From contig NC_087245.1 in the NCBI RefSeq assembly GCF_037042905.1, forward strand, positions 2,296,001 to 2,360,000: DNA of 64,000 nt. Direction: 5' to 3'. Both the position numbers and the translations under genes were made by a program. This stretch comes from Lytechinus pictus (lineage: Eukaryota). Shown in pieces: positions 6,730 through 44,578 of the stretch. Positions within the stretch are counted from its first letter, which is position 1; each line of letters begins with the position of its first letter. The notes beneath the pieces are model-generated. The model had not been told where the DNA came from, ran no database searches, and saw only the letters and a list, made by a program, of their open reading frames with translations.

Positions 6730-7429
6730 CCAATCCCCATAGGCTTACTCGCAGTGGCACCACGTTCTGTTGGATCACATGCACGCAAACCACGCTATAC
6801 CGCAACTGCGCATCCATCAATGAAAGATATTCTCCTGCACAGGTTTCCTAGGCCGTAAGACAATACTTAAAAATGCTAAAATTTCAAGTTTTCAGACCTT
6901 ATAATATCAACAAATTTCGCGCTCTCATTAAATTTATACATAATTTAAATCTGTGTTACAACCTGGGTATCTATTACTGTTTTTCTGACTGCTATAAAAT
7001 ATTCCACCATCATAATTATCATTGTATGTATCTGACCTAAAAAGGCATGTGACACACAGCAGAAATTGGACAATCAATGTAATATAATTCAAGCTGATTT
7101 AAAAAAAAGTCGCCTTTGCAGACATTAATAATTAAAATCCATTTTTTGTGTGCTTATTCTTTCAGAATAATCAAGACAATCTGCTCAGTGTTTTGTATGC
7201 CAATACTTTTGAGATTTGAAAATTGACTTTTTAAAAATTAATCTATCCCACAATACAGTGCATTATTGTGAACAACTCATGCTTTTCTGCAGGCACACCA
7301 AAATTATCTTGTCATAATTATAAGTTTCAACAAATTCTTTCAATCATTTCTTCCTTGCGATTCAAATACCACCTTTTCATGTTATGTGAATCATGATGGA
7401 CAAAAAACACAATCATACGTTTATTTTAA

Positions 7430-7640
7430 ATTGGTCTAATGCTGATTTGTCCAATTACAAACTAATCTACTATCATTTGGTCTACCATCAGTTCATCCAC
7501 TATCCACATGGTCCAATTGCCATTTCATCTAATACAGATTTAGTTCATATAACATTTGGTCTAATTGGACCAAGTGTTATATGAACTAAAAAGGAATGAA
7601 AAGAAAATAGACCAACTGGTTATGAGACGAAATGGTCATA
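7430..7640. mobile_element. Left part of a GTCTA/TAGAC MITE split by the giant element (right part at 23170-23315)
   Basis: Ends ...GACGAAATGGTCATA and resumes at 23170 as TAGACCAACTGG...GGAATTTACC, matching the family at 1655-2000. Confidence 0.65.
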
Positions 7641-9460
7641 CCCTTGTAAAAAAAAACCATGGTTTGATGGTAAGGTAAAACCATGGTTTTGCATTGGATC
7701 CATCGTACAGTAATTTCATAGTTTAACCATAGTAAGATATGGTTTAATTATGGTGAAATCATGGTGCACTAGTGTTTAACCATAGTCAAACTATAGCTTT
7801 AGCATGGGTAAACCATGGTAACCATGGTTAAATGGTGTTAAATTGGAACGCACTTACCATGACATTACTATGGCATAACCATGGTCACAACTGTGTTTTT
7901 ACCATATTTTAACAATGGTTAAGAAAGTATAAAACCATGGTAAAGAGAAGGTGAAACCATGGTTAGAAAAAGGTGAAACCATTGTTTTACAGCTGCCAAA
8001 CCACATAATTACAACCCGAATCACGGTAAAACCATAATCAATTGTATGGTAGACCCACCTTTTGACCATAGTGCAATATTGTATGATGATGGTTAAACCA
8101 TGTCAAAGTACTGTCTAGCCATGGTTTAACCATGGTTTACCACGGTTAAACTATAGGTTTAGCATGGGTAAACCATGGTAACCATGGTTAAAAGGTGTTA
8201 AATTGGAACGCACTTACCATGACATTACTATGGCATAACCATGGTCACAATTATGTTTTTACCATAGTTTAACCATGGTTAAGAAAGTATAAAACCATGG
8301 TAAAGAGAAGGTGAAACCATGGTTAGAAAAAGGTGAAACCATTGTTTTACAGCTGCCAAACCACATAATTACAACCCAAATCACGGTAAAACCATAATCA
8401 ATTGTATGGTAAACCCACCTTTTAACCATAGTGCAATATTGTATGATGATGGTTGAACCATGTCAAAGTACTGTCTAGCCATGGTTTAACTATGGTGTAC
8501 CACGGTTAAACCATAGGTTTAGCATGGGTAAACCATGGTAACCATGGTTAAAAGGTGTTAAATTGGAACGCACTTACCATGACATTACCATGGCATAACC
8601 ATGGTCACAACTGTGTTTTTACCGTACTATAACCACGGTTAAGAAAAGGTGAAACTATGGTTAAGAAAGTATAAAACCATGGTAAAGGGTAGGTAAAACC
8701 ATGGTAAAGCGAAGGTGAAACCATGGTTAGAAAACGGTGAAACCATTGTTTTACAGCTGCCAAACCACATAATTACAACCCAGATCACGGTAAAACCATA
8801 ATCAATTGTATGGTAAACCCACCTTTTAACCATAGTGCAATATTGTATGATGATGGTTGAACCATGTCAAAGTACTGTCTAGCCATGGTTTAACTATGGT
8901 GTACCACGGTTAAACTATAGGTTTAGCATGGGTAAACCATGGTAACCATGGTTAAAAGGTGTTAAATTGGAACGCACTTACCATGACATTACCATGGCAT
9001 AACCATGGTCACAACTGTGTTTTTACCGTACTATAACCACGGTTAAGAAAAGGTGAAACTATGGTTAAGAAAGTATAAAACCATGGTAAAGGGTAGGTAA
9101 AACCATGGTAAAGCGAAGGTGAAACCATGGTTAGAAAACGGTGAAACCATTGTTTTACAGCAGCCAAACCACATAATTACAACCCAAATCACGGTAAAAC
9201 CATGATCAATCATATGGTAAAACCACCTTTTAACCATTAGTACAATATTGTATGATGATGGTTAAACCATGTCAAAGTACTGTCTAACCATGGTTTAACC
9301 ATTGTATACCACGGTTTAACCATAATGTGCCACAGTTAATCGATGGTTTCATTGTAGATAAACCATGGCTACCATGGTTTAACCGTGGTTACAACCTTGT
9401 TTTTATTGTGGTAAATCCATCGTTTCAAAGTGTCTTTACTATGGTTAAGAAAAGGTGAAA
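7641..9460. repeat. Left subterminal tandem array (units of 360, 360, 404 and ~404 bp), CCATGG-rich
   Basis: AGCATGGGTAAACCATGGTAACCATGG starts at 7801, 8161, 8521 and 8925. The duplicate ORFs at 8639 and 9043 are offset by 404 bp. Confidence 0.9.
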
Positions 9461-11810: not shown

Positions 11811-12085
11811 ATTTCATATAACTGATTTGGCCAAGAAGACATGTTAGAAAGACTTTATACAAAAATTAAAAGAAAATAACTAGATGGATTCTCGACTGCA
11901 CACAGTCGAGATTTATGCCTCCGCCATTGCCACTAGATCAGAAATATGTTGCACAGGTAATTTCCCATAAATCTTCAAATTTGTTCTATTCTTTTTATAT
12001 TAAATAATTTATGCCTTATCCCAACATAAATAAACACTGAATGTTCAGTGCATGTTTGAGCTGCTAAGAAAAAAATTTACAGGCC

Positions 12086-12156
12086 GGCTCGGGTAGGAAT
12101 CGAACCCACGACCTTCTGGTTATCAGACAGGCGTAATACCACTTAACCACCGAGAA
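12086..12156 (-). pseudogene. tRNA-derived sequence (Thr-like body, GAT at the anticodon position)
   Basis: Reverse complement reads TTCTCGG-TGGTTAAGTGG...CCTGTCTGATAACCAGA...GTGGGTTCGATTCCTAC-CCGAGCC. A and B boxes are present with a T7 run downstream. The acceptor and anticodon stems are mismatched. Confidence 0.65.
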
Positions 12157-12254
12157 GCCCGATGGCTGGTAGCTGGTTTGATTCACATAATAGCAGCAGG
12201 TACAGTACTGTGTTGATATATCACATAATAGCAGCCAATAGCCATCGGGCTTAA

Positions 12255-12325
12255 TTCCTGGTGGTCTAGTTGTATGACGCCTGTCTAGTAACCAGGAGGT
12301 CGCGAGTTCGATTCCTACCATAGCT
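12255..12325 (+). pseudogene. tRNA-Thr(AGT)-derived sequence
   Basis: TGGTCTAGTTG...GCCTGTCTAGTAACCAGGAGGTC..GAGTTCGATTC resembles the eukaryotic tRNA-Thr anticodon arm. The acceptor stem is decayed. Confidence 0.65.
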
Positions 12326-13428
12326 GGCCTGAACATTTGGTGTTCACTTATATTTGGATAAGGCAAAAATTATTCAATAAAATTAAATCTACCCAACGGA
12401 AAACCTTGATTGATATTTTCTATTATCATATTGATCACTCTCATATATGCATCCAAGAACCATTAATATTGAATCTACAAGCAATTGTGACAAGAGACAT
12501 GAACTCTTAGACCTTTGAACTTCTCAAGTCAATGTCATTTGCATTGTCCATATTTGAAATTGATCTATCGAAGTCTTTGGTTTATCACAAGAACAATTTC
12601 ATGCATACACTGACCTACAATCAAACTTGATATATGAAAATAATTTTTAGTATTCATAAAACACAAGAAAATTACTAAATGGATAAAAAAGTTGTAAGTA
12701 TATGACCTTTATGACCTTTGAACTTGGCCCTGCAACCCCCCCAAATTACCCCCCCCCCTATATCAAGCATATATGTACCAAGTTTGGAGTTACTTCCTCT
12801 AACATTTTTTTAGTTACACAAGAACAAGATATTTTAAGGCATACTGACCTCCGTGACCTTTGACCATGTGACCCCAAAATCCAATCAGATCATTCTCCCT
12901 CTATTATGTATATAAAGAATGTACCAAGTTTGAAGTTATTAGCTCCAATGGTTAAGTTATCACAAGAACAGGACATTTTAAGGTATATAACGACCTCTGT
13001 GACCTTTCACCCGTGACCATAAAATCAAAACAAAGTATTATCCCCCCAGGATATACCCTCATACCAAGTTTGATGTAAAACCACTCCACGGTTCTTGAGA
13101 TTTCGACAAAACAAAACGGGACGGACGTACGGACGACCCGAAAACGTAATGCCTCCGGCCACTTCGTTGGCGGAGGCATAAAAAATCATAAATATTCTAA
13201 ATAAATTAAGAGTTAGCACAGATATGTCAAGCTTAATTAAGTATGGAATGCAGAATGATGTCATATACTCCTGAAAACTGTTTTTTTTTTGCTGTTGATC
13301 TTATAAGATTTGGTTTGACTGAGAAGACAAGGTAGAAAGACTATATGTATATACAAAAAAAAATCCCTGAATAAACTAAATAAATTAATGTACTTTTCAC
13401 ACACAGAGGTAGCACAGATATGGCAAGA

Positions 13429-18919: not shown

Positions 18920-21900
18920 CGGTAAAACGGGAATTTAATCATGGTTTTGTAACCAATGTTTTTACACTTTCATTAAACCACGGTTAAAACCATGGTTATA
19001 TATAACAATCATTTTCAAACTATCATAAAACCATGGTTAAAATCATGGTGTATAACCGTCGTTTTCAACCTTGGTAAAACGCAAATTTAACCATGGTTTT
19101 GTAACCACTGTTTTTACACTTTCATTAAACCACGGTTAAAACCATGGTTATATAACCATCATTTTCAAACTATCTTAAAACCATGGTTAAAATCATGGTT
19201 TAAAACCGTCGTTTTCAACCTTGCTAAGACGAATGTTTAACCATGGTTTTGCGTAACCACTGTTTTGACACTTTCATTAAACCACGGTTAAAACCATGGT
19301 TATATAACCATAATTTTCAAACTATCATAAAACCATGGTTAAAATCATGGTGTATAACCGTCGTTTTCAACCATGGTAAAACGGAAATTTAACCATGGTA
19401 CCACTGTTTTTACACTTTCATAAAACCACGGTTAAAACCATGGTTATATAACCATAATTTTCAAACTATTATAAAACCATGGTTAAAATCATGGTGTATA
19501 ACCATCGTTTTCAACCATGGTAAAACGGAAATTTAACCATGGTATTAATTGTAACCACTGTTTTTACACTTTCATTGAACCACGGATAAAACCATGGTTA
19601 TATAACAATCATTTTCAAACTATCATAAAACAATGGTTAAAATCATGGTGTATAACCATCGTTTTCAACCATGGTAAAACGGAAATTTAACCATGGTATT
19701 GTAACCACTGTTTTTACACTTTCATTAAACCACGGTTAAAACCATGGCTATATAACAATCATTTTCAAACTATCATAAAACCACGGTTAAAATCATGGTG
19801 TATAACCGTCGTTTTCAACCTTGGTAAAACGGAAATTTAACCATGGTTTTGTAACCACTGTTTTTACACTTTCATTAAACCACGGTTAAAACCATGGTTA
19901 TATAACCATCGTTTTCAAACTATCTTAAAACCATGGTTAAAATCTTGGTTTATAACCGTTGTTTTCAACCTTGCTAAGACGAATGTTTAACCATGGTCTT
20001 GTAACCAATGTTTTTACACTTTCATTAAACCACGGTTAAAACCATGGCTATATAACAATCATTTTCAAACTATCATAAAACCATGGTTAAAATCATGGTG
20101 TATAACCGTCGTTTTCAACCTTGGTAAAACGGAAATTTAACCATGGTTTTGTAACCACTGTTTTTACACTTTCATTAAACCACGGTTAAAACCATGGTTA
20201 TATAACCATAATTTTCAAACTATCATAAAACCATGGTTAAAATCATGGTGTATAACCGTCGTTTTCAACCATGGTAAAACGGAAATTTAACCATGGTATT
20301 GTAACCACTGTTTTTACACTTTCATTAAACCACGGTTAAAACCATGGTTATATAACCATCATTTTCAAACTATCATAAAACCATGGTTAAAATCATGGTG
20401 TATAACCGTCGTTTTCAACCATGGTAAAACATAAATTTAACCATGGTATTGTAACCACTGTTTTTACACTTTCATTAAACCACGGTTAAAACCATGGTTA
20501 TATAACCATCATTTTCAAACTATCTTAAAACCATGGTTAAAATCATGGTGTATAACCGTCGTTTTCAACCTTGGTGAAACGGAAATTTAACCATGGTTTT
20601 GTAACCACTGTTTTTACACTCTCATTAAACCACGGTTAAAACCATGGTTATATAACCATCATTTTTAAACTATCTTAAAACCATGGTTAAAATCATGGTG
20701 TATAACCGTCGTTTTCAACCTTGCTAAGACGAATGTTTAACCATGGTTTTGCGTAACCACTGTTTTGACACTTTCATTAAACCACGGTTAAAACCATGGT
20801 TATATAACCATAATTTTCAAACTATCATAAAACCATGGTTAAAATCATGGTGTATAACCGTCGTTTTCAACCTTGCTAAGACGAATGTTTAACCATGGTT
20901 TTGCGTAACCACTGTTTTGACACTTTCATTAAACCACGGTTAAAACCATGGTTATATAACCATAATTTTCAAACTATCATAAAACCATGGTTAAAATCAT
21001 GGTGTATAACCGTCGTTTTCAACCATGGTAAAACGGAAATTTAACCATGGTACCACTGTTTTTACACTTTCATAAAACCACGGTTAAAACCATGGTTATA
21101 TAACCATAATTTTCAAACTATAATAAAACCATGGTTAAAATCATGGTGTATAACCATCGTTTTCAACCATGGTAAAACGGAAATTTAACCATGGTATTAA
21201 TTGTAACCACTGTTTTTACACTTTCATTGAACCACGGATAAAACCATGGTTATATAACAATCATTTTCAAACTATCATAAAACAATGGTTAAAATCATGG
21301 TGTATAACCATCGTTTTCAACCATGGTAAAACGGAAATTTAACCATGGTATTGTAACCACTGTTTTTACACTTTCATTAAACCACGGTTAAAACCATGGC
21401 TATATAACAATCATTTTCAAACTATCATAAAACCATGGTTAAAATCATGGTGTATAACCGTCGTTTTCAACCTTGGTAAAACGGAAATTTAACCATGGTT
21501 TTGTAACCACTGTTTTTACACTTTCATTAAACCACGGTTAAAACCATGGTTATATAACCATCGTTTTCAAACTATCTTAAAACCATGGTTAAAATCTTGG
21601 TTTATAACCGTTGTTTTCAACCTTGCTAAGATGAATGTTTAACCATGGTCTTGTAACCAATGTTTTTACACTTTCATTAAACCACGGTTAAAACCATGGC
21701 TATATAACAATCATTTTCAAACTATCATAAAACCATGGTTAAAATCATGGTGTATAACCGTCGTTTTCAACCTTGGTAAAACGGAAATTTAACCATGGTT
21801 TTGTAACCACTGTTTTTACACTTTCATTAAACCACGGTTAAAACCATGGTTATATAACCATCGTTTTCAAACTATCTTAAAACCATGGTTAAAATCTTGG

Positions 21901-23167
21901 TTTATAACCGTTGTTTTCAACCTTGCTAAGACGAATGTTTAACCATGGTCTTGTAACCAATGTTTTTACACTTTCATTAAACCACGGTTAAAACCATGGT
22001 TATATAACAATCATTTTCAAACTATCATAAAACCATGGTTAAAATCATGGTGTATAACCGTCGTTTTCAACCTTGGTAAAACGGAAATTTAACCATGGTT
22101 TTGTAACCACTGTTTTGACACTTTCATTAAACCACGGTTAAAACCATGGTTATATAACCATAATTTTCAAACTATCATAAAACCATGGTTAAAATCATGG
22201 TGTATAACCGTCGTTTTCAACCATGGTAAAACGGAAATTTAACCATGGTATTGTAACCACTGTTTTTACACTTTCATTAAACCACGGTTAAAACCATGGT
22301 TATATAACCATCATTTTCAAACTATCATAAAACCATGGTTAAAATCATGGTGTATAACCGTCGTTTTCAACCATGGTAAAACATAAATTTAACCATGGTA
22401 TTGTAACCACTGTTTTTACACTTTCATTAAACCACGGTTAAAACCATGGTTATATAACCATCATTTTCAAACTATCTTAAAACCATGGTTAAAATCATGG
22501 TGTATAACCGTCGTTTTCAACCTTGGTGAAACGGAAATTTAACCATGGTTTTGTAACCACTGTTTTTACACTCTCATTAAACCACGGTTAAAACCATGGT
22601 TATATAACCATCATTTTTAAACTATCTTAAAACCATGGTTAAAATCATGGTGTATAACCGTCGTTTTCAACCTTGGTAAAACGGAATTTTAACCATGGTA
22701 TTATAAATACTGTTTTTATGCCATCATAAAACCATGGTTTAAATCATGGTTTTATAACATTGATTTCCAACCTTAGTAGAACGGGAGTTAAACCAAGGTT
22801 TCCTAACCATTGTTTTTATACTACTGTGAAACCATGGTTACAACCATGGTTAAATTACTATGGTTTTTTCACCAAAGTAGAACGATGATTTTGTCATGGT
22901 TTTATAACTATTGTTTTTTAACTTTCTTAAAACTGTGGTATAATGATGGTTTTTATAACCATGGATTTAAAATCGTCATAAAATGACATTTTTATCATGT
23001 TATTATAACTATGGTATTTTAACAATGGTATTACCACACTTCCGCCACACATTTACCTTGGTTATGAATTTAAAACCATGGACTACCATCGATCCATTGT
23101 AAAACCGCCCCTAACCATGGTTATACCATGATTACGGTTGTAAAACCATGGTTTTTTTTTATAAGGG
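18920..23167. repeat. Right subterminal satellite: ~25 monomers of 150 bp with higher-order duplication, then a degenerate tail
   Basis: TATAACCGTCGTTTTCAACC recurs at 19801, 20101, 20401 and 20701 (2x150 bp). Diagnostic variants recur at an offset of ~1652 bp. Confidence 0.95.
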
Positions 23168-23429
23168 TATAGACCAACTGGCGATTAAACAAAGTGATTA
23201 TGGGACTAAATGGTTGTTTGACGAAATGTTAATGAACAGGATGGTATTAGACTGAATGAAGGTAGACCTTGTGATGAGTGGACGTGTTGGCAGTTGACAA
23301 ATTAGGAATTTACCCAATCATCATCTGGACTGAGATTTGAAGTTCCATTTCCTCTGTGTATGTACGCCTATTGCATATGAGTGGAACAATGACCATCATA
23401 GACAAGACCAATATGGGGAGAATTTGAGT

Positions 23430-26400
23430 TCAAGGAGCATTTTGGGGTAAAAGTTGGGAACCGGTCTATTTCACCTAATTTGAATGTGCTGAATCTGATA
23501 AGACCGGTTCCCAAGCCAATTTTTCATGTTTTGACCACCTAATTTGCATAAACAAAATGGCTGCCAAATTGACAATTTATAATCTTATTTCTACAATATT
23601 CTTTTATAATATTCGCTTTCACCGATATGGATACTGCAAAATCCTGCATACTTAACATGTACCATTTGGGAAAATTTGTTATTTCTGTTTGCGGCTAATT
23701 AATTATGCAAATTTATGCATATTTTGCAATATTATGCTATAATTTGAAAATCACACCTAAAATGTTTATTATTCTGAGTACAAATAGCATTTGTATCATC
23801 ATAATAATTGTTTAGCCCTTAAATATAATATTCAAGTCAATTTTTATATGTATTTTATTGTTCTTTGATATTTCTTTTGTGTTCTTGTATTTTCTGCCAT
23901 TTGCTTTGTATATATGTTTGAGATGAGATCTTTAAAAATGATATCAATGGCAGACAAATATCAAGTATCAATGATTGAATCATTAGATAAACTTCTTTTG
24001 CCACAACTGTTAATTGTACTCAGGAACAAAAACACACACATGCTCCCACACCCAGACCTGTATATAGAAAGTAATATACTTGCAAGGTATAGTAGACATG
24101 CCCAATATAAAAACATTGATGCTGATCATATAATCATGACACTTACCAAATTCAATGAACCCGTAAGAAAAGAAGAGTTTAGAAGTTGAAAAACCTGTAA
24201 TCATGCTGAACTTAAATTTCTTGAAATAGATATATTAAAATGTTTCATAACAGATCAAATAATCAATTAAACATATGATTTACGCAGTGTAGTTTATCAA
24301 TCCGATATAATATCAGTACTTTGTTAAAATCCTTGCAGCAAAATCATATCTTTTATTCAGCTCCATCAGAACTGCAATCATGGCAGTTAACCAAAAAACA
24401 ATTTGTAATAAATACAAAGGGTCTGTATTACTGGATCACTTACTAGTTTTTTGGTCATTACCGATTTATTTATTTATGTGGCAACGATACATTTTCCCCA
24501 AGTCAACCATCAAAGTGAAAACTGAAAACCACAGCTTTTATCCAATCCTTACCTTGAAAGATTCTTTGACGAACGATACTGAATACAGAAGAGGAAATGA
24601 CAAAAACATGGGGCTAAACACAGATTAGCTCCATGGTTAAAACATGGGCAAAACAAGGTTTCCAACCCAGTCACTGCCCAATGCAGAACAAATTTTCACA
24701 TTGTGACCTATGGTTAAAAAGTGCTAGAGATGCCTGTTGAAGGTAAACCAGCATGGAGACAGTTGCAGAAGTCCAGTCTAGAGGTTATCCGGTCATCCCG
24801 GTCATGGATGATATTTTCTGCACCAGCTCATGTAAGACAATGTCTGATCTCAGCAATTCTGTTGAGCTGGTAATATGCAGATTGGCAGACATGTGATGTG
24901 TGCTTCTTCATGCTCATTGTTCTATCAAAGACTACGCCAAGAGATCTAGCCTTGCATACTGCAGATATATAGCTTCCTCACCTATTAAGACTGGAGTTGT
25001 AGTCATAATAATTACGCATATATGGAGATGACAGAACAAGATACCGGTACTTCGCATTTTATTGTTAAGCTCCAGGAAGTTGACCTTCATCCAACATCGA
25101 ATCCTCAATGGCAGCACCAACAACAGCAGCCGCACGAACCTCTGTATATTTACCTTCTGGATCAAAAGTGAGGTATACAGCTGGATGTCACCAGCATAGA
25201 AGTGTATACCAACACCATGTTGCCACATTACAGAGCCAAGAGGAGTGATGTACAGTTTGAAGAACAAGGGACAAGGACAGACTCCCAAGGAACTCCATAT
25301 CAAAGGGTAGTCACAGGAGTCTGCATGCCAGTGATGAATACAGCTTCATACAGCTCTGTTGGCAAGGTAAGAGAAACCTGCCATTGGAGTGCAAAATCAT
25401 CAATTCCAAAACAGACTGTCAGTCTCCCCAGAAGAATGACATGTTGACTGGTATCAAAACCGGTTGACAAGTCAAACATAACTTAGGCAACTGCTTTCCT
25501 CATAGAAAGAGAAATCCTGGCTCTACAATCGAAGACATTCTCGACCTAGACTTTGATGGTGATATCTCAGACTCGCATGGAGGCTATCAGAGCTGGGTAA
25601 GCTATTGGATGCTGTTGGGTTTAATACCGATCAGAATAAGTGGATTAATAATCACCCACAGAAACGCCAAACATTCCAGGAACCCACCATCCTCTGAAAG
25701 ATATCTTGGTTATCAATTTGAAATAGTCTATCTTATGAAGATATGAAGATATGTGAATATTAGAATTTCGATAAATGGCCTAGAAGACATTACACAATTC
25801 AATGCGGTATTGAAAAGGTGCACTCTGAGCATTTTAACACCTGAAACAAGATCTGGTTAGACAGAAGATTCTCTCTCAAGACAAAAGTTTAGGTTTTCTC
25901 TATGGATCTGTGACATGAGAATCGGACATATCTCAAGAACACAAACACGATGACTTCGATACGAACTGCCTCCGCAGAATACTTGTACTAAATTGGTTTG
26001 ATTCCAACAATTAGAGATGACTTTTATAATATGAGGCTGCTCTATCAATAAAGCCATCCAATTGAACACCAAATCATGATAACTGACATTGATCATTCAA
26101 CACCCCGAAGGAAAAGGTGTATATCAAGCTGGGGGAGGCTGGATGGCTCTAGGTTGGATGAAGCGGCAATCCTTGATAGGACAGGTGCAGTACTGCATTG
26201 GAAAAGATATATTATGGAGATGCACATGTAATCCGTTCATGAAGTCCAATGATAAAAAAATGGCTTTTAAAACACGGAAAACGGTCTAATTGATAGGCAA
26301 AATGAGAAATTAGATGGATTATACATGTATGTGGGTTCAGTTCTGATAATTTTTTTCCAATATTGGGACAATTTGACGAGCGTAATGGAGAAAAACACAG

Positions 26401-27402
26401 GACATCTCATTTTCAGCAGACGGTTTTCACTTCATTTTGCTGAAGAAAAACACACTAAATATATATACATGTATGTGTGATCAGATTCTGCTGGTCGGGA
26501 ACATAACTACTCCAAAGGATATTAAATGCAACTGATTGACTATTAAGGAGTTGAGAATTTCAGTACTGTTATGATTCAAATTTAATAATTCATAATCTAA
26601 AATTGTAAATATGAATGAATTGATTGATATCATAATTCAAGATACCATTTTATAATAAAAATATAAGCAATTAATAGTGACATTCGCTTGAATACAGATA
26701 GGTTCATGAAATTCGTTGGATCTCCACCAGTGTGCTTTTAAATGGGAAGGCCCTCCGTGCAGGAGTTTACCTTTGTATGCAGATGTGGGTGTGGGAGTGG
26801 GTGAATCTGTTTATGCCCATGAATATATGCGAATAAAAAAGTGATTACGTAATTAAATAATTGAAGCTTATTATTTTATGCCACTGATAATCAATAATTT
26901 GACAGATCCCATAACAAAACATGTACAAAACAAAAGGTACAAAATACAAAGAAATACATTAGAAATTCAAAAACAATAAAATACATTATTATTCACTGTG
27001 ATATGATATTCTAAGGGCCGTACAATTATTTATAATGATGTAAATGCTATTTGTACCAAAAATATAAACAATTGAGCTGAAATTATCAAATTATAGCATA
27101 ATGATCCAAAATATGCATAAATTTGCATAATTAATTAGCCGCAAACAAAAATAACAAGTTTTCCCGAAAGGTACACGTATGTATGCAGGATTTTGCAGTA
27201 TTCATGTCTGTGAAAGCGAATATAATTAAAGAACATTGTCGAAATAATATTCTGAATTGTCAATTTGGCAGCCATTTTGTTTATGCAAATTAGGTGGTCA
27301 AAACATGAGAAATTAGCTTGGGAACCGGTCTTATCAGATTCAGCATATTTGAATTGAGTGAAACAGTCCGATTTCCAACTTTTACCCAAAAATGCTTCTT
27401 AA
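23430..27402. mobile_element. 4-kb element with ~470-bp TIRs and a T(T/C)AA TSD (Kolobok-like), carrying LINE debris
   Basis: TCAA-GGAGCATTTTGGGGTAAAAGTTGG ... CCAACTTTTACCCAAAAATGCTTC-TTAA. 23434-23900 is the reverse complement of ~26930-27398. Confidence 0.85.
24900..25500 (-). pseudogene. Decayed reverse transcriptase of an L2/CR1-group LINE
   Basis: VMFDLSTGFDTSQHVILLGR (25420-25495) and [32 protein letters not shown]...[10 protein letters not shown] correspond to the DLSAAFD, GPLLF.LY and YADD motifs, with stops and frameshifts. Confidence 0.85.
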
Positions 27403-27443
27403 AGTTTATATAGGCCTGTTTTTCCAGAATGTGTCTAGTCTAT

Positions 27444-27613
27444 CAGGGGACCGCTTTCTGAAAGTTTTCAGCTCTGAAAAAAAATTGACTTTCTCCGACA
27501 GTTACTATAGTAACGGAGGCCAGTGCCTCTCAGCCAATCAAAACCAAGAATTTCACTGAAATTGTCAGCACGGACAGTTTAGCGGTAGTCAGTGCTGACA
27601 ACTTTCACCCCTG
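27444..27613. mobile_element. Small MITE (CAGGGG...CCCCTG)
   Basis: Inverted ends CAGGGG..GAAAGTT.TCAGC.CTGA / TCAGTGCTGACAACTTTC.CCCCTG. Partial copy at 34168-34265. Confidence 0.65.
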
Positions 27614-27992
27614 AATATCTCTATCGCTACAATATGCCAACTCTCGATCTCATAATTCTGACTATACAGATATAAACAATAACCCCCCCCCTCTCAGGCA
27701 AGCTTAAAACACTAACAAATTATCAGGAATTTCTTGCTTTCATCTCCCATCTCCTGTCAGCTTTCATCTGCTTCATGATACACCTTTCACAAATAAAGAC
27801 GCAAGACATAGTTTATAAGGGGCATAATAATAATGATATATTAACAATCAAATATAGCCCCTATAGATATAAGAAATGCAATAATTGCAATATAATATAA
27901 TAAATAGTGAAATAATATGCAATACAATAGGGCAAAATAATATAAATAACATAATATATTGTAAGAACAAGATAAAGATGGCTCTTCGTTAC

Positions 27993-28250
27993 ATTGTTAC
28001 CACTCCTGTCTGATTGCTGGTGTATAGACAAGTCATAGAGTGATTATATCTCCAAGCAAAAGATGACGCAGGAACGCCCGGTCTGAGTCGCAATCAGCCC
28101 CTATCACTTGCCAGTAAACTGACAAATGACAGGGGCTGAAAAGTTTCTCAAACCAGGCGCCTCCCATGTTCCCTGCGTCATCGATTGCTTAGGGATAAAT
28201 CACACCATGACTGCTCTACACACAGGCAATCAGACAGGAGTGGCAACAAT
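27993..28250 (-). other. 258-nt rod-like imperfect hairpin, copy 1 (candidate structured RNA)
   Basis: Arms pair over the whole length (ACCACTCCTGTCTGATTGC/GCAATCAGACAGGAGTGG, GATGACGCAGG/CCTGCGTCATC, TCAGCCCCT/AGGGGCTGA) around a tiny loop. The strand is inferred from G.U bias. Confidence 0.8.
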
Positions 28251-28384
28251 ATCACAAAATCCTCCTTTTGCCCCCTGAAAAAAGATTATAAACTGCAATA
28301 ACAATGCAAAAAAAATATATATATGAAGATAACGGTAATGAAGACAATATATCTCAATCACAATGCCAAACATAACAATACATC

Positions 28385-28830
28385 ATGATATAAATGGCAT
28401 TATAACAACATACATGTAGCAATACAACAAATGGCAATATAACATAGCCATGTAACAAATGGCATTATAACAACATAGCAATACAACAAATGGCAATATA
28501 ACATAGCCATATAACAAATGGCATTATAACAACATAGCAATACAACAAATGGCAATATAACATAGCCATATAACAAATGGCATTATAACAACATAGCAAT
28601 ACAACAAATGGCAATATAACATAGCCATATAACAAATGGCATTATAACATAGCCATATAACAAATGGCAATATAACATAGCAATATAACAAATGGCAATA
28701 TAACATAGCCATATAACAAATGGCAATATAACATAGCAATATGACAAATGGCAATATAACATAGCAATATGACAAATGGCAATATAACAACATAGCCATA
28801 TAACAAATGGCAATATAACAATATAACAAA
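28385..28830. repeat. Minisatellite of 28/31-bp units (AACAAATGGCAATATAACATAGCCATAT)
   Basis: About 15 direct tandem units. It explains the three repetitive Cys/Tyr-rich ORFs. Confidence 0.95.
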
Positions 28831-29090
28831 ATTAAAGCAATATACTACCCATGTGAGCAACTGTTTCTGGAGTGAGCAACCGTTTCTGGAGTAAGAACAC
28901 ACTGCTATAGCGGTAAAAATGTCACAAAATTATCCTTTACTCATCAGAAAAAAGTAATAATAAATACACACAATAATATGTGGATTTACATTGGAATATA
29001 ATTTACTGCTTTTAAGATCAATCAATCTGATAAGCCAGAAAAAATCTAGGACCCAGCAGGAATTGAACCTCTCATCTACTGATTGCCGGA

Positions 29091-29275
29091 TTTATACAGC
29101 GCTTTCAGCAGCACTGCAGTGTTGGAATGAAAAAATCCTGCAATGCAGATACTCATTTACCTAACCTGGGTGGAGTGCAGCACAGTGTGTTTGCTAAAAG
29201 AAAGCATACCATGGCTAGGATTCTAACCCTGGACCCTCTGAAAGACGAGAGTCAGAACCACTAGACCACGATGAT
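29091..29275 (-). mobile_element. Degenerate tRNA-derived SINE
   Basis: Shares GAGTGCAGCACA..CCATGGCT.GGATTC.AACCC..GACCCTCTG with the SINE at 51091-51375. Confidence 0.6.
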
Positions 29276-29758
29276 CCCTTCATGGGAAAATAAATTGATA
29301 ACAATAACAGGATGATCCACTATTCCTGTGTCTATAAATTGCTTGGAGTTGGAGATATATCACACCATGACTGGTCAGCACTTTATAGGCAATAAGATAA
29401 GAGTGGTAGACTGTAGACAATACCACAAAATCATCTACTTATTGCAAAAATAATGCAAATAATATCTGTAAAATAATGCCACATATACAATGCAAAAATG
29501 ACAATGCCACTATATGCCACTATTAACAATCTTTAATGACAATGGGTAATAAACCCGACGCATCAAATATTCCTGAGAATTGCTTGGAGAGATAAATTAC
29601 ATGTACCACCATGACTGGTCTACAGACAGGAGTGGTAACAATGTCACAAAAAATGAAAAAATAATGCCAAACAAAATAATATATCATGATAATGGCCAAT
29701 GACCAAAATCTATGCCAATACAAACAACAATAGACATGGCACTTAAATAATTTGTTTG

Positions 29759-30352
29759 CTGATTATTTCAGTGTTTATTATGATACTGACTTCAATATTG
29801 TTGAACATTGTAATTGATATTGTCATCGTTGATAATTTTGTTAATACTATTGTTATCATTATTACAATATTTTATATTTATGGTGACTGTTTTTATTGTT
29901 ATTATTGTTCTGATTAGAGGATTGAATTGTTACCACTTCTGTCTGATTGCTTGTGCACAGACAAGTCATGGAGTGATTATATCTCCAAGCAAACGATGAA
30001 GCAGGAACGCCCGGTCTGAGTCGCAATCAGCCCCAGTCACTTGCCAGTGAACTGACAAATGACAGGGGCTGAAAAGTTTCCCAAACCGGGCGCCTCCCAC
30101 GTTCCCCGCGTCATCGATTGCTTAGGGATAAATCACACCATGACTGCTCTACACACAGGCAATCAGATAGGAGTGGTAACAATGTCACAAATAATCCTCT
30201 ACTCAAAACAATAACAATAGAAACAATCACCATAAATACAACAAAAATTGTTAATAATGATAAAAATAGTAAATAACAAAAATAATCAAAGATGAGAATA
30301 TCAATAACAATGTTCAAATTTGAAGTCAGTATGATAATAAACATATAATCAG
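29759..30352. other. ~600-bp palindrome whose core (29926-30183) is copy 2 of the rod-like hairpin
   Basis: The core is a near-identical same-orientation copy of 27993-28250. The AT-rich outer arms 29759-29925 and 30185-30352 are also reverse complements. Confidence 0.85.
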
Positions 30353-31752
30353 ATAAAAAAAAATAATAAACCTTTGACAGACAATAGACTACATTTTGGG
30401 AAATGTGACTGAGGTATAAGTGATAAAAGTTTCATCCTACAAGGTTAAAGGTTAAAGGTAATGCACAGTGTCTATCGCCACCAATTTGGTGGCAAATAGA
30501 AGAGGAAATTTACAATATTGTATGTATCTCTCGATAGGTAATAGCATGGCTATACCAATAAATCTGGCAGTGACATGATTACCAGTTACTAAAATAATCA
30601 AGTGCTAAATACCCTCAAACTCTGTGTAATGGGAACATATTTTTCCTCAATAATTGGTCAAGCAAGAGGAGTATATATAATATGATTTGCTATACCAATA
30701 AATCTGATACAGGCAGTATACGATTCTTTACAAGTGTACTGATATCATGTCTTAATCAAGATGAATAAGTATTATATGATTTGGCATAACAAGCCTAAAT
30801 ATACATCTCGATTATGTGAGAGATAAAAGCATACAATATATCCATCATATATAAGGTTTTACTATAGAAACCATAAATAGATTCAAGAATTTCTCTCTTT
30901 ACAAAAAAAAGTTATGCATTATTGCAAGTTTTTGATTGCAGGCTAGCATAATAACCAATAAGCCTGCAAATAGAGTATTCATATCTCCATTGCGTGAGAG
31001 GTGGTTCCCCTACCTATATCAAAATTGTTTGAAAAGCAGTGTATAACCCTGTAGGGTTGAGCCTCAAAGATGTCAAATTTCTCTCTGATCATGGACAAAT
31101 ATGTCCATACTTGATCATCATATGATTACAGTGACACTGTGCATTACCTTATCTCTTCTAAGGTTGGTGAGACAGAAAAATTTTCTCATGGACCCTGCCA
31201 TGGTTCTCGTAGGATCCATCCATGATCTACTAGAGGGTTGCATCTGTTATTTCACTATTAACCTACATTCATATCATTGTGTCTGCACATTGTGGGTAGG
31301 AAATATTTATGGGGAGGGGGTACTCAACTCGTTAGGCGCCTTGTCAAAAATCAAAGCTGCTTCTTTCCCACAGGAAACCAACTCATCACAGACAATTATG
31401 CTGTGAAAGACACCACCACGTTCATAGGAGGAATCCTGCTAAAGACACAGAGCAGACTTTTGAAAACTTGCCTTTTTAAGTGTGCCACTTGAGAAAAAAT
31501 ATTTGTAAATGGGTAAAAATACCCTAATAGCAATTCCTTGAATAACTGACCTTCATGAACTTCAATGGCACAATCTTTTCAGAATAAAATGTGAGTACCC
31601 CCTCCCCCACTACACCATTTGGAAAGTGTTGAATTTGGTGATTAGAGAAATTAATAATATGTGCTATGATTTATAATTTGGGTTTAACCTTCTTCTTTGT
31701 GGGCTCTTTCTGACCTTGGAGATAAATGATCAAGGCCCCTCCCACCCCACTG

Positions 31753-32219
31753 CAGTTAGGAACTTCAATTGTGACCAACCACCCCAAAACCACCAATAAG
31801 TTGCCAGGGAACGTTCTGTTAATAGCCCAAATAGACAATTGATCTTCAAAAAAATTTTAAAAATCAGCTGGTCTAACAGAGCATTTCTGCATCTTTATAC
31901 TGTCAAAATTATATTGTATAGAAAACAAAATACAAGTGTTTCTTTGATGTAAGTTTTAGTGGACTGCTTTCATTAAAATGGGAGTGCACATCTCATGCTT
32001 GAGAGAACACAAACTTCAAGCGTTGTTTTCTACCTATCTCCTGAAGCTCTGGCTTTGTTTTCTCTGCATTCAATCATGTATCTGAGTGAATTATTGTGGA
32101 TTAAGTTTAACAAATCATACATCATTTTAAGCTCAGGATGTGCTTGTTCAAACTCAATAGAAATCTGAAAATTCATTTTGGGCAACTTATTGTGGGGTGG
32201 CTGGTCACAATTGTGACTG
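31753..32219. mobile_element. Tc1/mariner-like MITE
   Basis: CAGT..CAATTGTGACCAACCACCCC..CAATAAGTTGCC / GGCAACTTATTGTGGGGTGGCTGGTCACAATTGTGACTG-TA. Confidence 0.6.
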
Positions 32220-32981
32220 TAAGAAACACCCCCCAGAGGGGGGGAGGGCTAATAAGACCGCCCTTTTTTAGTGTGGGGAGGGGGTCAATTAGAACCCCCC
32301 CTTCAGATCTCGGCTGCCGTTTGCATGATCATCTAAGAAATTTGTATCAATGTAAATAGGTGTAAAATCAATAAATTTAAAAAATTAAAATTAAAAATTA
32401 AAAACTAAAATTAAAAATTAAAATTTGAAATTAAAAAAATATTAAAATAATTTTTGTTTTAATTTTCTTTTGCCTGTTAAACTTTTTTATTACATTGCCT
32501 TTTCAATTAACTTTGAGGAGACTCTTTTACAATCATACACAGCATAATATGAATCCATTTAAACCAATGAAAATATAAATATTTACATATTTTGGGTTTT
32601 CATTTGAAAATCCAATTTGCATTGACAAAATGATGTGTTTTGATCAATTTTGGGGGTTGACATGCATGTCATTGCAATGATGAGGGATGACGCATTAAAA
32701 TAAAGTTTATGTTGCACATCGTTACCTCAAGACCAGTGAGTGCCAAATTTCATGAGCAACGGTCAAAACCTAAGATAAAGGCCAATGTGTGCACCAAATT
32801 TCACAAGCACTCATGAAGTATTTTGGTTGGTTAGATTTTTAACCTATTTTTGCCATATGTGGTTATCATGGACACGTAATGACCAGCATATGTGAAAAAT
32901 GTTGTCTTGCATATCTTTACCTCAAGACCTAATGTATGTGCCAAATTTGCTAAGGACTGACCACCTAACCGCATGCTGATT

Positions 32982-33555
32982 CTGCTGTCTCACACAGGGG
33001 CAGATGCTGTCAGGACTAAGGCTAGAAACATGTCAATCTCAGCATGACCAAGGCTGTAAAGAAAGGGTCTGATAAAAAAGCCAGGATGAGCAAGATAGTG
33101 GGTAATTGTTCATCCATGAGAAAGATAAGAACTCCAGACCACTATCACAAGAGCAGTTGGGTCAGGGGGAGCTTACAGCCAACGGTGGTCGGTAAGAGCA
33201 TGGACCTACTAGTAGGTCCATGGTAAGAGGAAAAAGCGAACAAAAATGTCACTAAAACCATGCTAAAACCAAGATAAGTTTCAGTTATCAGTGTTACTGG
33301 CTCATACTGCTGACAGCATTTAGAGTTAAGGGTTCACCTCAGACATGAGTAAGTAAACCTTCTCTTTCTACTGTGATAACATGAGCTCAAATGACTCAAG
33401 CAGAAATCGAAAGATGGTGGTTAAGTGTATGAGATCCAGTCCTGCTGTCTCACACAGGGACAGATGTTGTCAGGACAATTGCTAGGAAACCAAGGTCATG
33501 AAAAAATCGCTCAGAATAAGCAGGGACAGCAATTCTACTCTCCTAGATCTTGTGC
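32982..33555 (-). mobile_element. Displaced fragment of the decayed Ngaro/DIRS-like RT region
   Basis: Homologous to 38482-38720 and 39438-39962. Confidence 0.6.
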
Positions 33556-33833
33556 AGGGGTATAGCAAGAACTATTGAAAAGAACATGAATTAAAGAGAG
33601 TAAATGGAACCCCAATATGGGTATTGTCCCTCCTGATATTTCTCTTCCCCTCTATCCCACACTGGTTCCTCAGATAACACCTACATGTATTCACACTACA
33701 ACAGCCCACAGTACATGATCTCAAAATGACCTAATTGTAAAGGATACACAAAGTGTTTGAATTAACCCAATTTAAGGACGTTCCAGTTAAAATGAATTTG
33801 GCATTTTTAGACCCCTAAAGATCACTACGTTTA

Positions 33834-34595
33834 CCCGGGGGGGGGGGGGCCAGTCAAATATATTGCTGTACACACGCGTGACCCAAAAACGCGATTAAAG
33901 GGGTGTTTCTTCAGTTCTGGCCGCGGGCCGCGCGTGCACTCGTTAAGGGTATCAAAAACACTGATTTTCAAAAAAAGGGGTATTTTTGAAAGACTGGTAT
34001 TTTTAGGGTATGTTTTTTTCACAGATTGTGATGAGTGGACGTGTTGGCAAAAGACAAATTAGGAATTTACCCAATCATCATCTGGATTGAGATTTAAAGT
34101 TCCATTTCCTCTGTGTATGTACGCTCCTATTGCGTATGAGTGGAACAATGACCTACATAATGAAAATCAGGGGACCGCTTTATGAAAGTGAAAAACTTGA
34201 CTTTCTCTAACAGATACCATAGTAACAGAGGCCAGTGCCTCTCAGCCAATCAAAACCAAGAATTTGGTATAAAAAACGCTGATTTTCAAGAAAAAGGTGG
34301 TTTGAAAGACTGGTCAATGGTCAATCATGGGGTCAAACATATTTAGGGTATTTTTTTCCCAAAAGCTTTTTTTAAGAGTAGTCAAACGTGTTTGGGGTAT
34401 GTTTTTTCCCCAAGCTTTTTCCCCGGGGTCATATTCTGCCGACAACTTGATTAGGGGCCAATATGTGTAAATTAAGCCCACAAAACCTTGTTTAGGGGGT
34501 TATTTTGCATACAAAGAAAAACTTGTTTAGGGGGTGTTTGGAAATAATTTTGCCACGCGTGTGTACAATACATTGACTGCCCCCCCCCCCCCGGG
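33834..34595. mobile_element. CCCGGG-terminus MITE with a 7-bp TSD
   Basis: ACGTTTA-CCCGGGGG..CAGTCAA...GTACACACGCGTG / CACGCGTGTGTAC..TTGACTG.CCCCCGGG-ACGTTTA. Truncated relative at 52568-52650. Confidence 0.88.
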
Positions 34596-40750: not shown

Positions 40751-40755
40751 AGGGG

Positions 40756-41306
40756 CCCGGGGGGGCCACTTCCATTCACGAGTGGATACCATGCGCGACC
40801 ATGGGGTCTCGAAAAGCACCCTAAACACGTAATTTCCATATTCTGAAAATGCACCCCTTAACAAGTATTGGCGTGTGAAACCCTACCCTTAACAAGCATT
40901 GGAAACAAAACGATACTCTTGGCAAATATTCCTTGAAATGAACCCCTAAACAAGTACAGGAATGGTTTATTGTTACGGGTCCTTCGGTCGTCGGCTTTAC
41001 CTTATTTGGTTTAGTACGACCCCACCTTCTACACCTCGCGCAAATCGGACTCTAAACACGAAGTGTTGGGGCAAAATGGACATCCTTTATAAAACATTTT
41101 AATTTTGTTTTATCATTCCCGCAAATTCGACCCTAAACACGTAATTTTCCTAGCGAAATAGACACCCTTTTTTCATTATTTTTGTGTTTTTGACACCCTT
41201 ATCACGTTACGTACGTAACGTGCCCTATCGTGAAAAGGACATCCTTTTTACGTGTTTTTTTGGTCGCGCATGGTATCCACTCGTCAATGTAAGTGGCCCC
41301 CCCGGG
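40756..41306 (+). mobile_element. Young 551-bp CCCGGG-terminus MITE with an 8-bp TSD, copy 1
   Basis: GGGAGGGG-CCCGGGGGGGCCACTT...AAGTGGCCCCCCCGGG-GGGAGGGG with ~43-bp TIRs. Near-identical inverted copy at 57373-57922. Confidence 0.95.
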
Positions 41307-42821
41307 GGGAGGGGACTGCTTGCTATGAATGACTTGAGCTAAGGACGAACCTTCCTACGTCACGTCTCCTGCAACTTTTAAGACTAAAGTGACACCAGAA
41401 CTGGCAGAGTGGACAATTACATCCAGAGCATGCCGACAATGGTCAGCATAGCTTCATTAATACTGAATAGGCTATTTCAATGCCTAAAAAGACAGGGGGT
41501 TGAGACTTGGCCATTGATCATCGATCGCAACGACAATTGGCACGCGCGTTACCCATGGCCTAAATTATATTCACTTTGTTTTGTTTTAAATAATCAATTA
41601 ACACCGAAATAATCAACTACTCAATTAGGAAGACAAGGATTAAATATCTAACTTGTCATTAATTAACCATGTACAAGAGAAGTAAGAAGAATTATATTAA
41701 CTAAATAATCCATCAAGCCAGAATAAAAAATAAAGAATAAAAGAGAGGATTGAAACCAATTTTAAACCTATAAAAGGGAGCTAAATAAAAAGAAATCAAG
41801 ACCGGCTGAAAACTTATACGGAAAGCTGGAGAAATAATTCAGGTTTCAAACCTAAACAGAGCAAAAGTGACGCACGAAACTTCCGCTGTGAAGCTAGGGT
41901 GGAAATATTCAGTGAATCATTCACGTAACAAAAGACGGGGATAAATCATGTCAGGGCATCCAACAAAAGTGCATCATGCAAGAGAGAGCGTGGAAAGGCA
42001 ACGGGATGACAAAGATCTCACATAGGCACCATGTACAAAAGGTACACGGCTGAATGGAGAAGCAATTTAGAAAATCGCTTAATATGTCTCACTCAGAGAA
42101 TTTTTTAAGAACCAAAACACCAATACCAAAGTAATAAGGGTTGGCAATGAATCTGGTGCAAAGTAAACAAACAAAATGCCATATAAACTGTATTTTGGAA
42201 GTGTACTTAGCTCTTTCACAAAGAGATTTCTTCACTGCAAAAGAAAAGCAAAGATGAAGATAGAGAGTTAAACCTTCGGAAGTGCATGGTTATAGTTCGA
42301 CAGGAGATGGCGCTGTTGCAATTTTTAATTGTTTACTATATTCGAGGGCAGTTCATTAAATATAAACTAGCAAAACTACATGGATACATCACGATTATTG
42401 AAGTAAATCATTTTATCCTCTATATATGGTCCATTCCTATACAAATATTACAAGATAAATTGTTAGGAACTACCCAGAAAAAATATATCTACATAGCTTC
42501 ATATTTATAGGTCATAAAAGCATGTCAAATGATTCTATAATCCCTATATACATTACTGTGTAGTTAAATATTTGTATTTTCCTGCGGTACATCATAGAGC
42601 AGGATTTTTTTTTTTTGTATATGCACATTCATGAATGATTACGTAACGGGTTCTGTGGAAGCGGGAAGGTTTGAATACTTTTATGCAGGTGGAAGTTTAT
42701 TGTGCTTGAGGAGAAAGGAATGTCGGGGAAGGTATAATTGGGAAGGAGAAAGGCGTGGGAGCCATTCTAGCTTTGTCAGATCTTCTTACAACACGCAGAC
42801 TGAGTCGGGGGCAGAGACAGC

Positions 42822-43560
42822 ATGGAGTCGACAGACATCGCTAATTTAGTCCGAGAAGAGGTTTTGGAGACGCAAAACACTCTACTTATTAAGCTAGAAA
42901 CGCTCGTTTCAGAAAAGCTAAATAATTTCCAGAAGGAAATAAGCAATTCACAACCAGTTTTGAGCAAAGTACAGATCACTAAAATCCAGGAGTTAAAAAG
43001 CACAGCCTTCAAGTTAAAAAAGAAGGTCAACAAAGAGCAGTATAAGATAAACACTAAGATCTATCAGAAATTCGCGGAAGCTGAAGCTATTCTCAAACAA
43101 GATCCTGAAATAAACGCCGCTACTTCGTCTGACTTAGAAAAAATCTCAGAAGGTAAAGACATTTTAAAGCACAGGCAGAAGATAATTAAACTAGCCGACC
43201 AGTCTCTGTTTGGTTGGCTCACAGAATACGAAATGAACTCTTATCGCTCAAGGTTCGGACGACAAGAAGAAAATTTGGAAGGCAGAGGCCAGGGCAAAGC
43301 GAAAGATGAATCAAGCGCCACGAAAGAAATTTGTTCCTCTTTCTTGCCCATATGGTCTCGAGAAGCAGCCAACCCCTATTTCGTCTTGGCCCAGCGTCAA
43401 ACCTCATGGACAGCATTGGGACTTCAAGAGGAGAACTGGGGCTTGCTTCGCTTGTGGGAAGTTCGGGCACTGGCGTTTCGAATGCAGAGATGTGACATCC
43501 AACAAGGAAGCAAGTAAAGAAAAGATAATTCAAATTTTCACGTTCAGTTCGATAATGTGA
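42822..43560 (+). pseudogene. DIRS/PAT-like ORF1 (gag-like) with a CCHC zinc knuckle, frameshifted
   Basis: KHRQKIIKLADQSLFGW..EY motif in ORF 42822-43517. CFACGKFGHWRFEC lies in the shifted frame 43306-43560. Confidence 0.8.
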
Positions 43561-43859
43561 ATTTTCAGAATAATGAAAGTACATTTGCAAACGGCAAAAA
43601 AGTTACAGAGGTTGAGATAAATTCTGAATCGGGTTTTAATCTGAAAACTCCTGTTGGAAGGCTAAAAATCGCAAAAGAAAAATGGAAAGAAATTGGAACT
43701 TGTCATTGTATTTTGGATGTGAAGAGAAATATGCAACAGTTTGAATACAAGAGCCAGTTGGCAAGCACCAATTAAGGTTGGAAGCGAGACAAAAGAAGAT
43801 ATCAATTTTCGGTTACATAATGTTGACTGCTTGAATGAAATAAGCAAAATACCGAATTG

Positions 43860-44578
43860 TACTATGTTTACAGATGCAGCAGAAACCGGTTTCGGTGGTT
43901 TTGTAGCCAATTGGAGGAACTGGTGGTTACTGGAAGTTGGTCAAAGAGTGAAAAGGAAATGACTGGGCAGAGTGTTCAGTTGAACACTGATAACATAAAT
44001 GTTGCAACCATGTTGAAATGGGGAGCAAGAAGAATGATTTACATTCACAAGTTATCAGTATATATGATAAATGTAAATCAGGTAATATAAGTATTCAGCC
44101 AGTATGGATAAGAAGGGAGATTAACCACATAGCAGATGGCTTGAGCAGAAAGGGAGATAGTGATGATTGGTGTATTGATGAGAATGTATACCAGAATTTA
44201 GATATTTTATGGGGTCCATATGATATCGACAGGTTTGCTAATAAATACAATAACAAATGTGTCAGATTCCATTCCAGATGGTGGTGTCATGGTACAAGTG
44301 GCATAGACGCTTTTAGTCAATCGTGGAAAGATTGCATTAATTGGTGGGTTCCTCCCCCAAGATTAGTTAACAAATCGATCAATAAAATAGTAAAAGAAAG
44401 TGTAAACGGTACATTGATCATACCTCTTTGGAAATACGCTCCATTTTGGCCAAAAATAAATCAAGATGGTGAATTTGTATCATTTGTAAAAGAAAAAAAA
44501 ATGTTTGATTCCAGTATAACAAGTATAACAATGGTATATTCGGTAATAGCAAATACCGGTTCGGGATGGTTGCAATGA
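43860..44578 (+). pseudogene. DIRS-type RNase H followed by a DNA N6-adenine methyltransferase-like domain
   Basis: FTDAAETGFGG(fs)GSWS..TDNINV..WGSKK..PVWIRREINHIADGLSR, then DDW...WGPYDIDRFA..N.KC.RF...IDAFSQSW....NWWVPPP...GTLIIPLW..APFWP. Confidence 0.9.

Follow-up and report, generated by a model that had tools for sequence, protein, structure and literature searches.

The stretch of the Lytechinus pictus genome analysed here, referred to as the window, comprises 64,000 nucleotides (contig NC_087245.1, positions 2,296,001 to 2,360,000) and contains two copies of a 258-nt sequence, which lie in the same orientation at 27993-28250 and 29926-30183 and are 93% identical. Both had been located correctly in an original prediction, made from the letters of the window, which described each copy as folding back over its whole length around a loop of 2-4 nt. 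The description holds: each copy forms a full rod closed by a 4-nt loop, and the internal loops and asymmetric bulge that the copies were said to share are present in both, with a 2x2 loop at positions 37-38 of the arm and a one-sided bulge of 10 nt near positions 82-91. The pair is real and each member folds as foreseen, but the prediction missed a longer fold-back around copy 2, and also that the genome holds 10 such clusters, of which the pair forms one. The features of the locus are:

27442..34000, no strand: duplicated unit, approximate extent; leftward, homology resumes at 23169-23400 and at 6901-7640, interrupted by insertions
27600..27850, minus: downstream block common to both subfamilies of the unit; candidate last exon or 3' end
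27857..27880, minus: second acceptor-like site, with its AG at 27862-27861, following the hairpin array; consensus match only
27993..28250, minus: hairpin copy 1, a 258-nt imperfect rod with 99 Watson-Crick and 10 G.U pairs and a 4-nt loop; the 3'-most copy on the minus strand
28205..28234, minus: least variable 30-nt stretch (5'-arm positions 17-46, partner ~219-241); candidate main small-RNA duplex
28251..29925, minus: U/G-rich spacer with decayed 5'-arm-only pieces at ~29354-29435 and 29623-29651
28417-28829: 28-bp minisatellite within this spacer
29207-29275: tRNA-like SINE head within this spacer (the SINE label is our own reading)
29751..30360: AT-rich extension of the copy 2 fold-back, ~170 bp per side, found also in two other subfamily-A loci
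29926..30183, minus: hairpin copy 2, with 97 Watson-Crick and 10 G.U pairs and with variants common to subfamily-B copies
30430..30455, minus: acceptor-like site, AG at 30438-30437; consensus match only
30456..30472, minus: 3' member of a 17-bp inverted repeat, just before a branch-point-like motif
31133..31149, minus: 5' member of the 17-bp inverted repeat, covering a donor-like site whose first intron base is 31147

A search of the 811.7-Mb genome, which has a strong match to the sea-urchin protein Bindin, returned 35 near-full copies of the hairpin (84-100% identical), grouped into 10 clusters that are spread over 6 contigs, with one to eight copies per cluster and a single orientation within each. 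When a 25-mer from the least variable stretch was scanned against the genome with 3 mismatches allowed, all 37 matches fell inside the 10 clusters (27 of them exact) and the control gave 0, showing that the family is small. The comparisons between copies described below used 33 of the 35, leaving out one truncated copy and one 84% copy with mis-set ends. Every copy lies within a homologous multi-kb duplicated unit which has ragged ends and nested insertions and occurs as two subfamilies, A and B. MITEs and other fold-back transposons are short, nearly palindromic and multi-copy, and the original prediction had named the centre of an ordinary MITE as the outcome that would undo it. We rejected this identity: the ~35 copies always sit in the same homologous unit, in 10 homologous clusters; none of the 35 has a target-site duplication (junction repeat of at least 2 nt); and the consensus is an imperfect palindrome with fixed arm mismatches, 7 G.U positions having persisted in 28 or more of the 33 copies. 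Clear partial copies occur within spacers and at L040 (C16:12.09 Mb), a locus in decay, and are all 5'-arm pieces, which suggests that a tandem repeat came first and that one of its units was then duplicated in inverted orientation to give the hairpin. We considered L040 as the parent of the family and rejected it, as it is a decayed paralog. We propose that the hairpins multiplied through segmental duplication and through tandem gains at individual loci, and that conversion took place among the copies. In the open-access literature searched, we found no description of tandem long-hairpin loci in echinoderms; this low-copy family of tandem long hairpins is real and, within that scope, had not been noted before.

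Folded as RNA, the minus strand has an energy of -178.2 kcal/mol in copy 1 and -160.2 in copy 2, the plus strand one of -142.0 and -144.3, respectively; the minus strand was also the more stable with DNA parameters (-89.7 vs -77.9 and -81.6 vs -79.4). The latter result would suit a hairpin that works as single-stranded DNA and is read by the enzyme of a mobile element (a Crypton/attC-like or Helentron-like end signal), the unit then being a non-autonomous element, and a truncated piece of the unit is indeed present on another contig. We consider this improbable: the asymmetry is greater under RNA parameters, the hairpins are internal and repeated, whereas those at Crypton and Helentron ends are single and terminal, homology runs for kilobases on both sides, and it shows ragged ends and shared nested insertions between loci, with low copy number and no target-site duplication.

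To avoid bias from the energy model, we set opposed positions by aligning the two arms without energies. Copy 1, for which about 9 A.C against 2 G.T mismatches on the plus strand had been counted by hand, has 10 against 3 (on the minus strand, 10 G.U and 3 A.C), and copy 2 has 10 G.U against 5 A.C on the minus strand; 6 of the G.U positions are shared between the copies, in line with the claim of at least four. The minus strand folds more stably in all 34 copies folded, though these are related by descent. For the consensus, the difference between strands is -24 kcal/mol; when the neutral decay of 300 palindromes was simulated, 2.7% of them (3.3% two-sided) differed at least that much. The G.U:A.C ratio of the consensus, 9:3, is by itself not significant (p=0.15). 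Of the inverted repeats in the window and the fetched loci, 26 others carry 10 or more transition mismatches (several rows overlap), and one of these was equally lopsided (at least 75%); two other palindromes of the window fold alike on both strands. The asymmetry of the hairpin is real and of modest strength.

The distinct variants found at Watson-Crick pairs across the 33 copies comprise 36 that give G.U, 19 that give A.C, 31 transversions and 5 double changes. The excess of G.U over A.C differs from 50:50 (p=0.03) but is not significant against the substitution spectrum of the spacers themselves (p=0.22, expected G.U fraction 0.57), a stricter control which replaced a first one based on flanks (~0.53). 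With the same spacer control, p was 0.035 when G.U was taken as a share of all single changes, and 0.05 for a core picked post hoc. Forced local alignments produced a G.U excess merely from composition and were kept out of the evidence. On the minus strand the spacers have U/A ratios of 1.5-2.2 and G/C ratios of 1.2-1.6 in 10 of 10 clusters, with values of ~1.0 outside, which is suggestive of a strand-specific process on this strand. The case for a minus strand shaped to fold is therefore weak, the spacers being U/G-skewed too and the G.U:A.C excess being one that their spectrum can accommodate.

Upstream of the array, the 17-bp inverted repeat is kept in 9 loci with its members 694-958 nt apart, while the enclosed sequence has diverged between subfamilies to an identity of 55-58%. 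The stem of one locus, read on the minus strand, shows a compensatory change from A-U to G-C beside a U.G pair; that of another locus has an A.C mismatch. A common transposon end was rejected as the identity of this repeat, since 18 of its 22 genome matches lie in family loci; the four others are single matches and show no homology to the family. The donor-like site at 31147 is the sole match to the pattern between 27600 and 31200, the acceptor-like AG at 30438-30437 is kept in both subfamilies with a 3-nt shift, and the second acceptor-like site is present in 7 of the 8 loci aligned, where it could alternatively belong to a small stem, as one of its arms. All these donor-like and acceptor-like sites are on the minus strand and, if they are real, the array would be exonic or intronic depending on the acceptor used. 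A truncated upstream part of subfamily B, carrying both 17-bp repeats and no hairpins, lies on contig C13 at ~20.00 Mb (L043:7030-9413), where it adjoins an exon that reads by eye like a SNF2-family helicase and which we take to be SMARCAL1-like. At the left end of the unit in the window, homology is split by a ~4-kb insertion (23429-27403) between ~550-bp inverted repeats that are 83% identical. A 240-nt piece of this left end is found again at 34026-34265, inside a common repeat (33840-34585), and the same arrangement occurs at two other subfamily-A loci; an LTR-like reading of this 240-nt direct repeat at both subfamily-A ends was dropped, given that the right copy is inside the common repeat.

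Between subfamilies A and B the hairpins average 92.3% identity, compared with 53-59% for neighbouring segments in forced alignments, or mostly 81-87% over the 0.5-1 kb that align locally. In closely related loci the hairpins are no more alike than their flanks (e.g. 0.964 vs 0.969), and hairpin identity levels off near 92-95% at any flank distance. This lack of a gap between hairpin and flank in close loci, together with the subfamily-B variants in copy 2, makes gene conversion among copies likely, and conversion can give such a pattern of conservation without selection. Changes on both sides of a pair were seen at 6 of 110 pairs, against 3.0 in shuffles, 5 of 500 of which reached 6; this is a lenient control, and relatedness of the copies inflates the test. 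At five of the six doubly changed pairs, other copies have G.U. These data suggest selection on pairing without establishing it. Within the rod, the tree places 7 changes in the least variable stretch, at 28205-28234 (permutation p=0.048).

These observations bear on an explanation without structural function, namely an old inverted duplication of one tandem-repeat unit which was multiplied by segmental duplication and homogenised by conversion, its asymmetry being one ancestral draw plus strand-biased mutation, perhaps due to read-through transcription. The plateau in hairpin identity, the p values of 0.22 against the spacer spectrum and 0.15 for the 9:3 consensus, and the fact that clear partial copies are all from the 5' arm, as if from an older repeat unit, are what such a history would leave. 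Also, apparent compensation can result when one arm of a DNA palindrome is repaired from the other. We nevertheless judge it unlikely, if the most serious of the alternatives: the arms have not been homogenised, as the 7 persistent G.U positions attest; pairing of the 17-bp repeat is intact across subfamilies whose enclosed sequence has diverged, and includes a compensatory change; and the G.U share of single changes is above expectation (p=0.035).

We looked for a complementary target or a parent gene with three probe scans and with DNA and protein searches, which diverged or spliced targets would escape, and found none. The first probe, the 25-mer at 3 mismatches, had no match outside the arrays; the second had 34 outside matches (33 at 3 mismatches and 1 at 2; control 14), and the third a single one (control 2), and none of the outside matches coincide. 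One arm contains, on its plus strand, an open frame of 51 aa (28123-28275), which matches only the arrays and has no match in Pfam, PDB or the protein database; a WD40-like reading of it was dropped. Searching Rfam with the window and 7 loci gave no family, only sub-threshold scores (e.g. 28.6 bits vs a cut-off of 63), and no self-cleaving ribozyme; a loose ribozyme core-like pattern matched once in the 10 clusters. Retrozymes and viroid-like circular RNAs consist of rod-like units of ~250 nt in tandem arrays, and the hairpins resemble them in this. They differ in that no ribozyme was found, which leaves the viroid-like rod of the original prediction unsupported, and the variable spacers make no exact multimer. 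Scans of viral and metagenome sequences with one 25-mer gave 0 matches.

With respect to machinery, the genome search found one Dicer-domain exon and four Argonaute/Piwi-family loci, both numbers being lower bounds; no dedicated siRNA branch is visible among them. An RdRP search gave no match, and its control matched nowhere either. Two Piwi-domain genes on contig C1, at 30.56 Mb and 30.78 Mb, have near-identical scores and lie on opposite strands ~0.2 Mb apart; the pair probably arose by recent duplication or is a duplicate in the assembly.

A structured RNA that is transcribed but escapes dicing would account for the same structural and splice-like evidence as a diced one. Its rods would bind double-stranded-RNA proteins (ADAR or Staufen-type) for editing, localisation, storage or as a decoy, which covers the earlier idea that A.C pairs on the plus strand are ADAR sites. 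The failure to find either a target or a second Dicer fits this RNA better than dicing. We think it quite unlikely, however, given that the rod varies in conservation along its length, with a maximum in a single stretch the size of a duplex (p=0.048), and given the derived transitions, which on the minus strand are C>T 26, G>A 13, A>G 11 and T>C 8: A-to-G is dominant on neither strand, which speaks against fossilised editing. The plus-strand ADAR version also fits the splice-like and skew signals less well.

The explanation that we favour, with a probability of about 45%, is a non-coding transcript of the minus strand whose tandem hairpins are cut into small RNAs, similarly to hp-CG4068 of Drosophila. 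It builds on the structure, copy number, layout, strand asymmetry and relative conservation of the hairpins, all of which are observed; transcription, splicing, dicing and action on any target are steps that we infer from the DNA. The clusters would constitute a multi-locus non-coding gene family, each of whose minus-strand transcripts would contain one to eight imperfect 258-nt hairpins joined by U/G-rich linkers. Starting at the base, the rods would be cut by an RNase III enzyme, which we presume to be the single Dicer detected and which Drosha may precede, and the resulting 21-23-nt duplexes, mainly from positions ~17-46 / 219-241, would be loaded onto Argonaute. The loci would then work like the Drosophila tandem hpRNA locus or like a cluster of giant pri-miRNAs.

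As far as the consulted part of PMC11840564 goes, hp-CG4068 has 20 palindromic repeats of ~260 nt. The urchin loci share with this locus (also called esi-2) the tandem array of imperfect hairpins of about that length, in the same orientation and in variable copy number; this is a likeness of architecture which implies no sequence homology. The urchin loci differ from hp-CG4068 in belonging to a deuterostome with one Dicer match, in being distributed over 10 clusters on 6 contigs, and in having long, variable linkers (57 to 1,675 nt). According to the portion of PMC10317233 consulted, Drosophila hpRNAs undergo copy-number flux and form families with dispersed copies and often spliced precursors, and tandem hpRNA loci depend on Dicer-2 and silence young selfish genes. 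A long imperfect fold-back in tandem same-strand copies, dispersed copies and copy-number flux (1-8 per cluster, 10 clusters) are all found in the urchin; we do not on that account claim membership in the hpRNA class, which is defined by 21-22-nt siRNAs that are lost in Dicer-2 mutants and in which most loci, though not all, have a target gene of high complementarity. Single-Dicer molluscs are described as having no endo-siRNAs in the part of PMC12479628 seen, which calls for caution with a siRNA version of our explanation.

Giant miRNA hairpins of invertebrates, such as mir-989, offer a second likeness, being long, well-paired rods with their most conserved duplex near the base (PMC12553114, as excerpted). 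Drosha and Dicer-1 alone could handle such rods, and a giant-miRNA model would fit a single-Dicer animal better than the siRNA version. The urchin hairpin differs in matching no known miRNA family in Rfam, in a conserved stretch that starts ~17 bp from the base and not at ~10-13, and in a large bulge ~35 nt beyond this stretch. [quoted passage not shown] The same excerpt reports uniformly short loops for deuterostome miRNAs, with one chordate miRNA only having a loop of >50 nt among 13,788 deuterostome homologs.

On the evidence of the genome, the hairpin family, with its gene-like anatomy, makes a good candidate for an hpRNA-like or giant-miRNA system in a deuterostome. If our explanation is true, hpRNA-type genes can arise without a dedicated siRNA branch, in an urchin with one apparent Dicer, or else the loci are a deuterostome case of giant miRNA precursors, which are nearly absent from that group judging by the excerpt of PMC12553114. 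A bolder version seems to us rather unlikely: that small-RNA genes with tandem long hairpins, built like hpRNAs and spread over several chromosomes, evolved independently in the sea urchin and are processed by its single Dicer, and that in them a conserved RNA stem, from the first donor to the acceptor region, sets whether the array is exonic (first acceptor) or intronic (second). A deuterostome invertebrate would in that case have a dedicated, structured endo-siRNA or giant-miRNA system, whose role might be to keep a selfish element in check. The loci show sea-urchin biologists where to seek endogenous processing of long double-stranded RNA.

The window contains several other repeats. An array of ~150-175-nt units with a conserved core of ~50 nt occupies 54200-61200 and has a strong C skew on the plus strand; a 500-nt piece of it folds at -132.5 on the minus strand vs -79.3 on the plus, a difference that the C skew alone may explain. 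The palindrome at 12073-12338 consists of two tRNA-like heads (tRNA match at 12082-12157) and folds equally on both strands. Two open frames at 42804-44578, the second with a match to Dam methyltransferase below the cut-off, are presumably the remnant of a DIRS-type retrotransposon. A 150-bp satellite (~26 copies) and a related-looking tandem repeat of 360-404 bp, at 18921-22851 and 7788-9324, have a short palindromic motif in common. Finally, a 553-bp repeat is found in opposite orientation at 40754-41306 and 57373-57924, 16 kb apart and 98% identical, and is a recent insertion pair.
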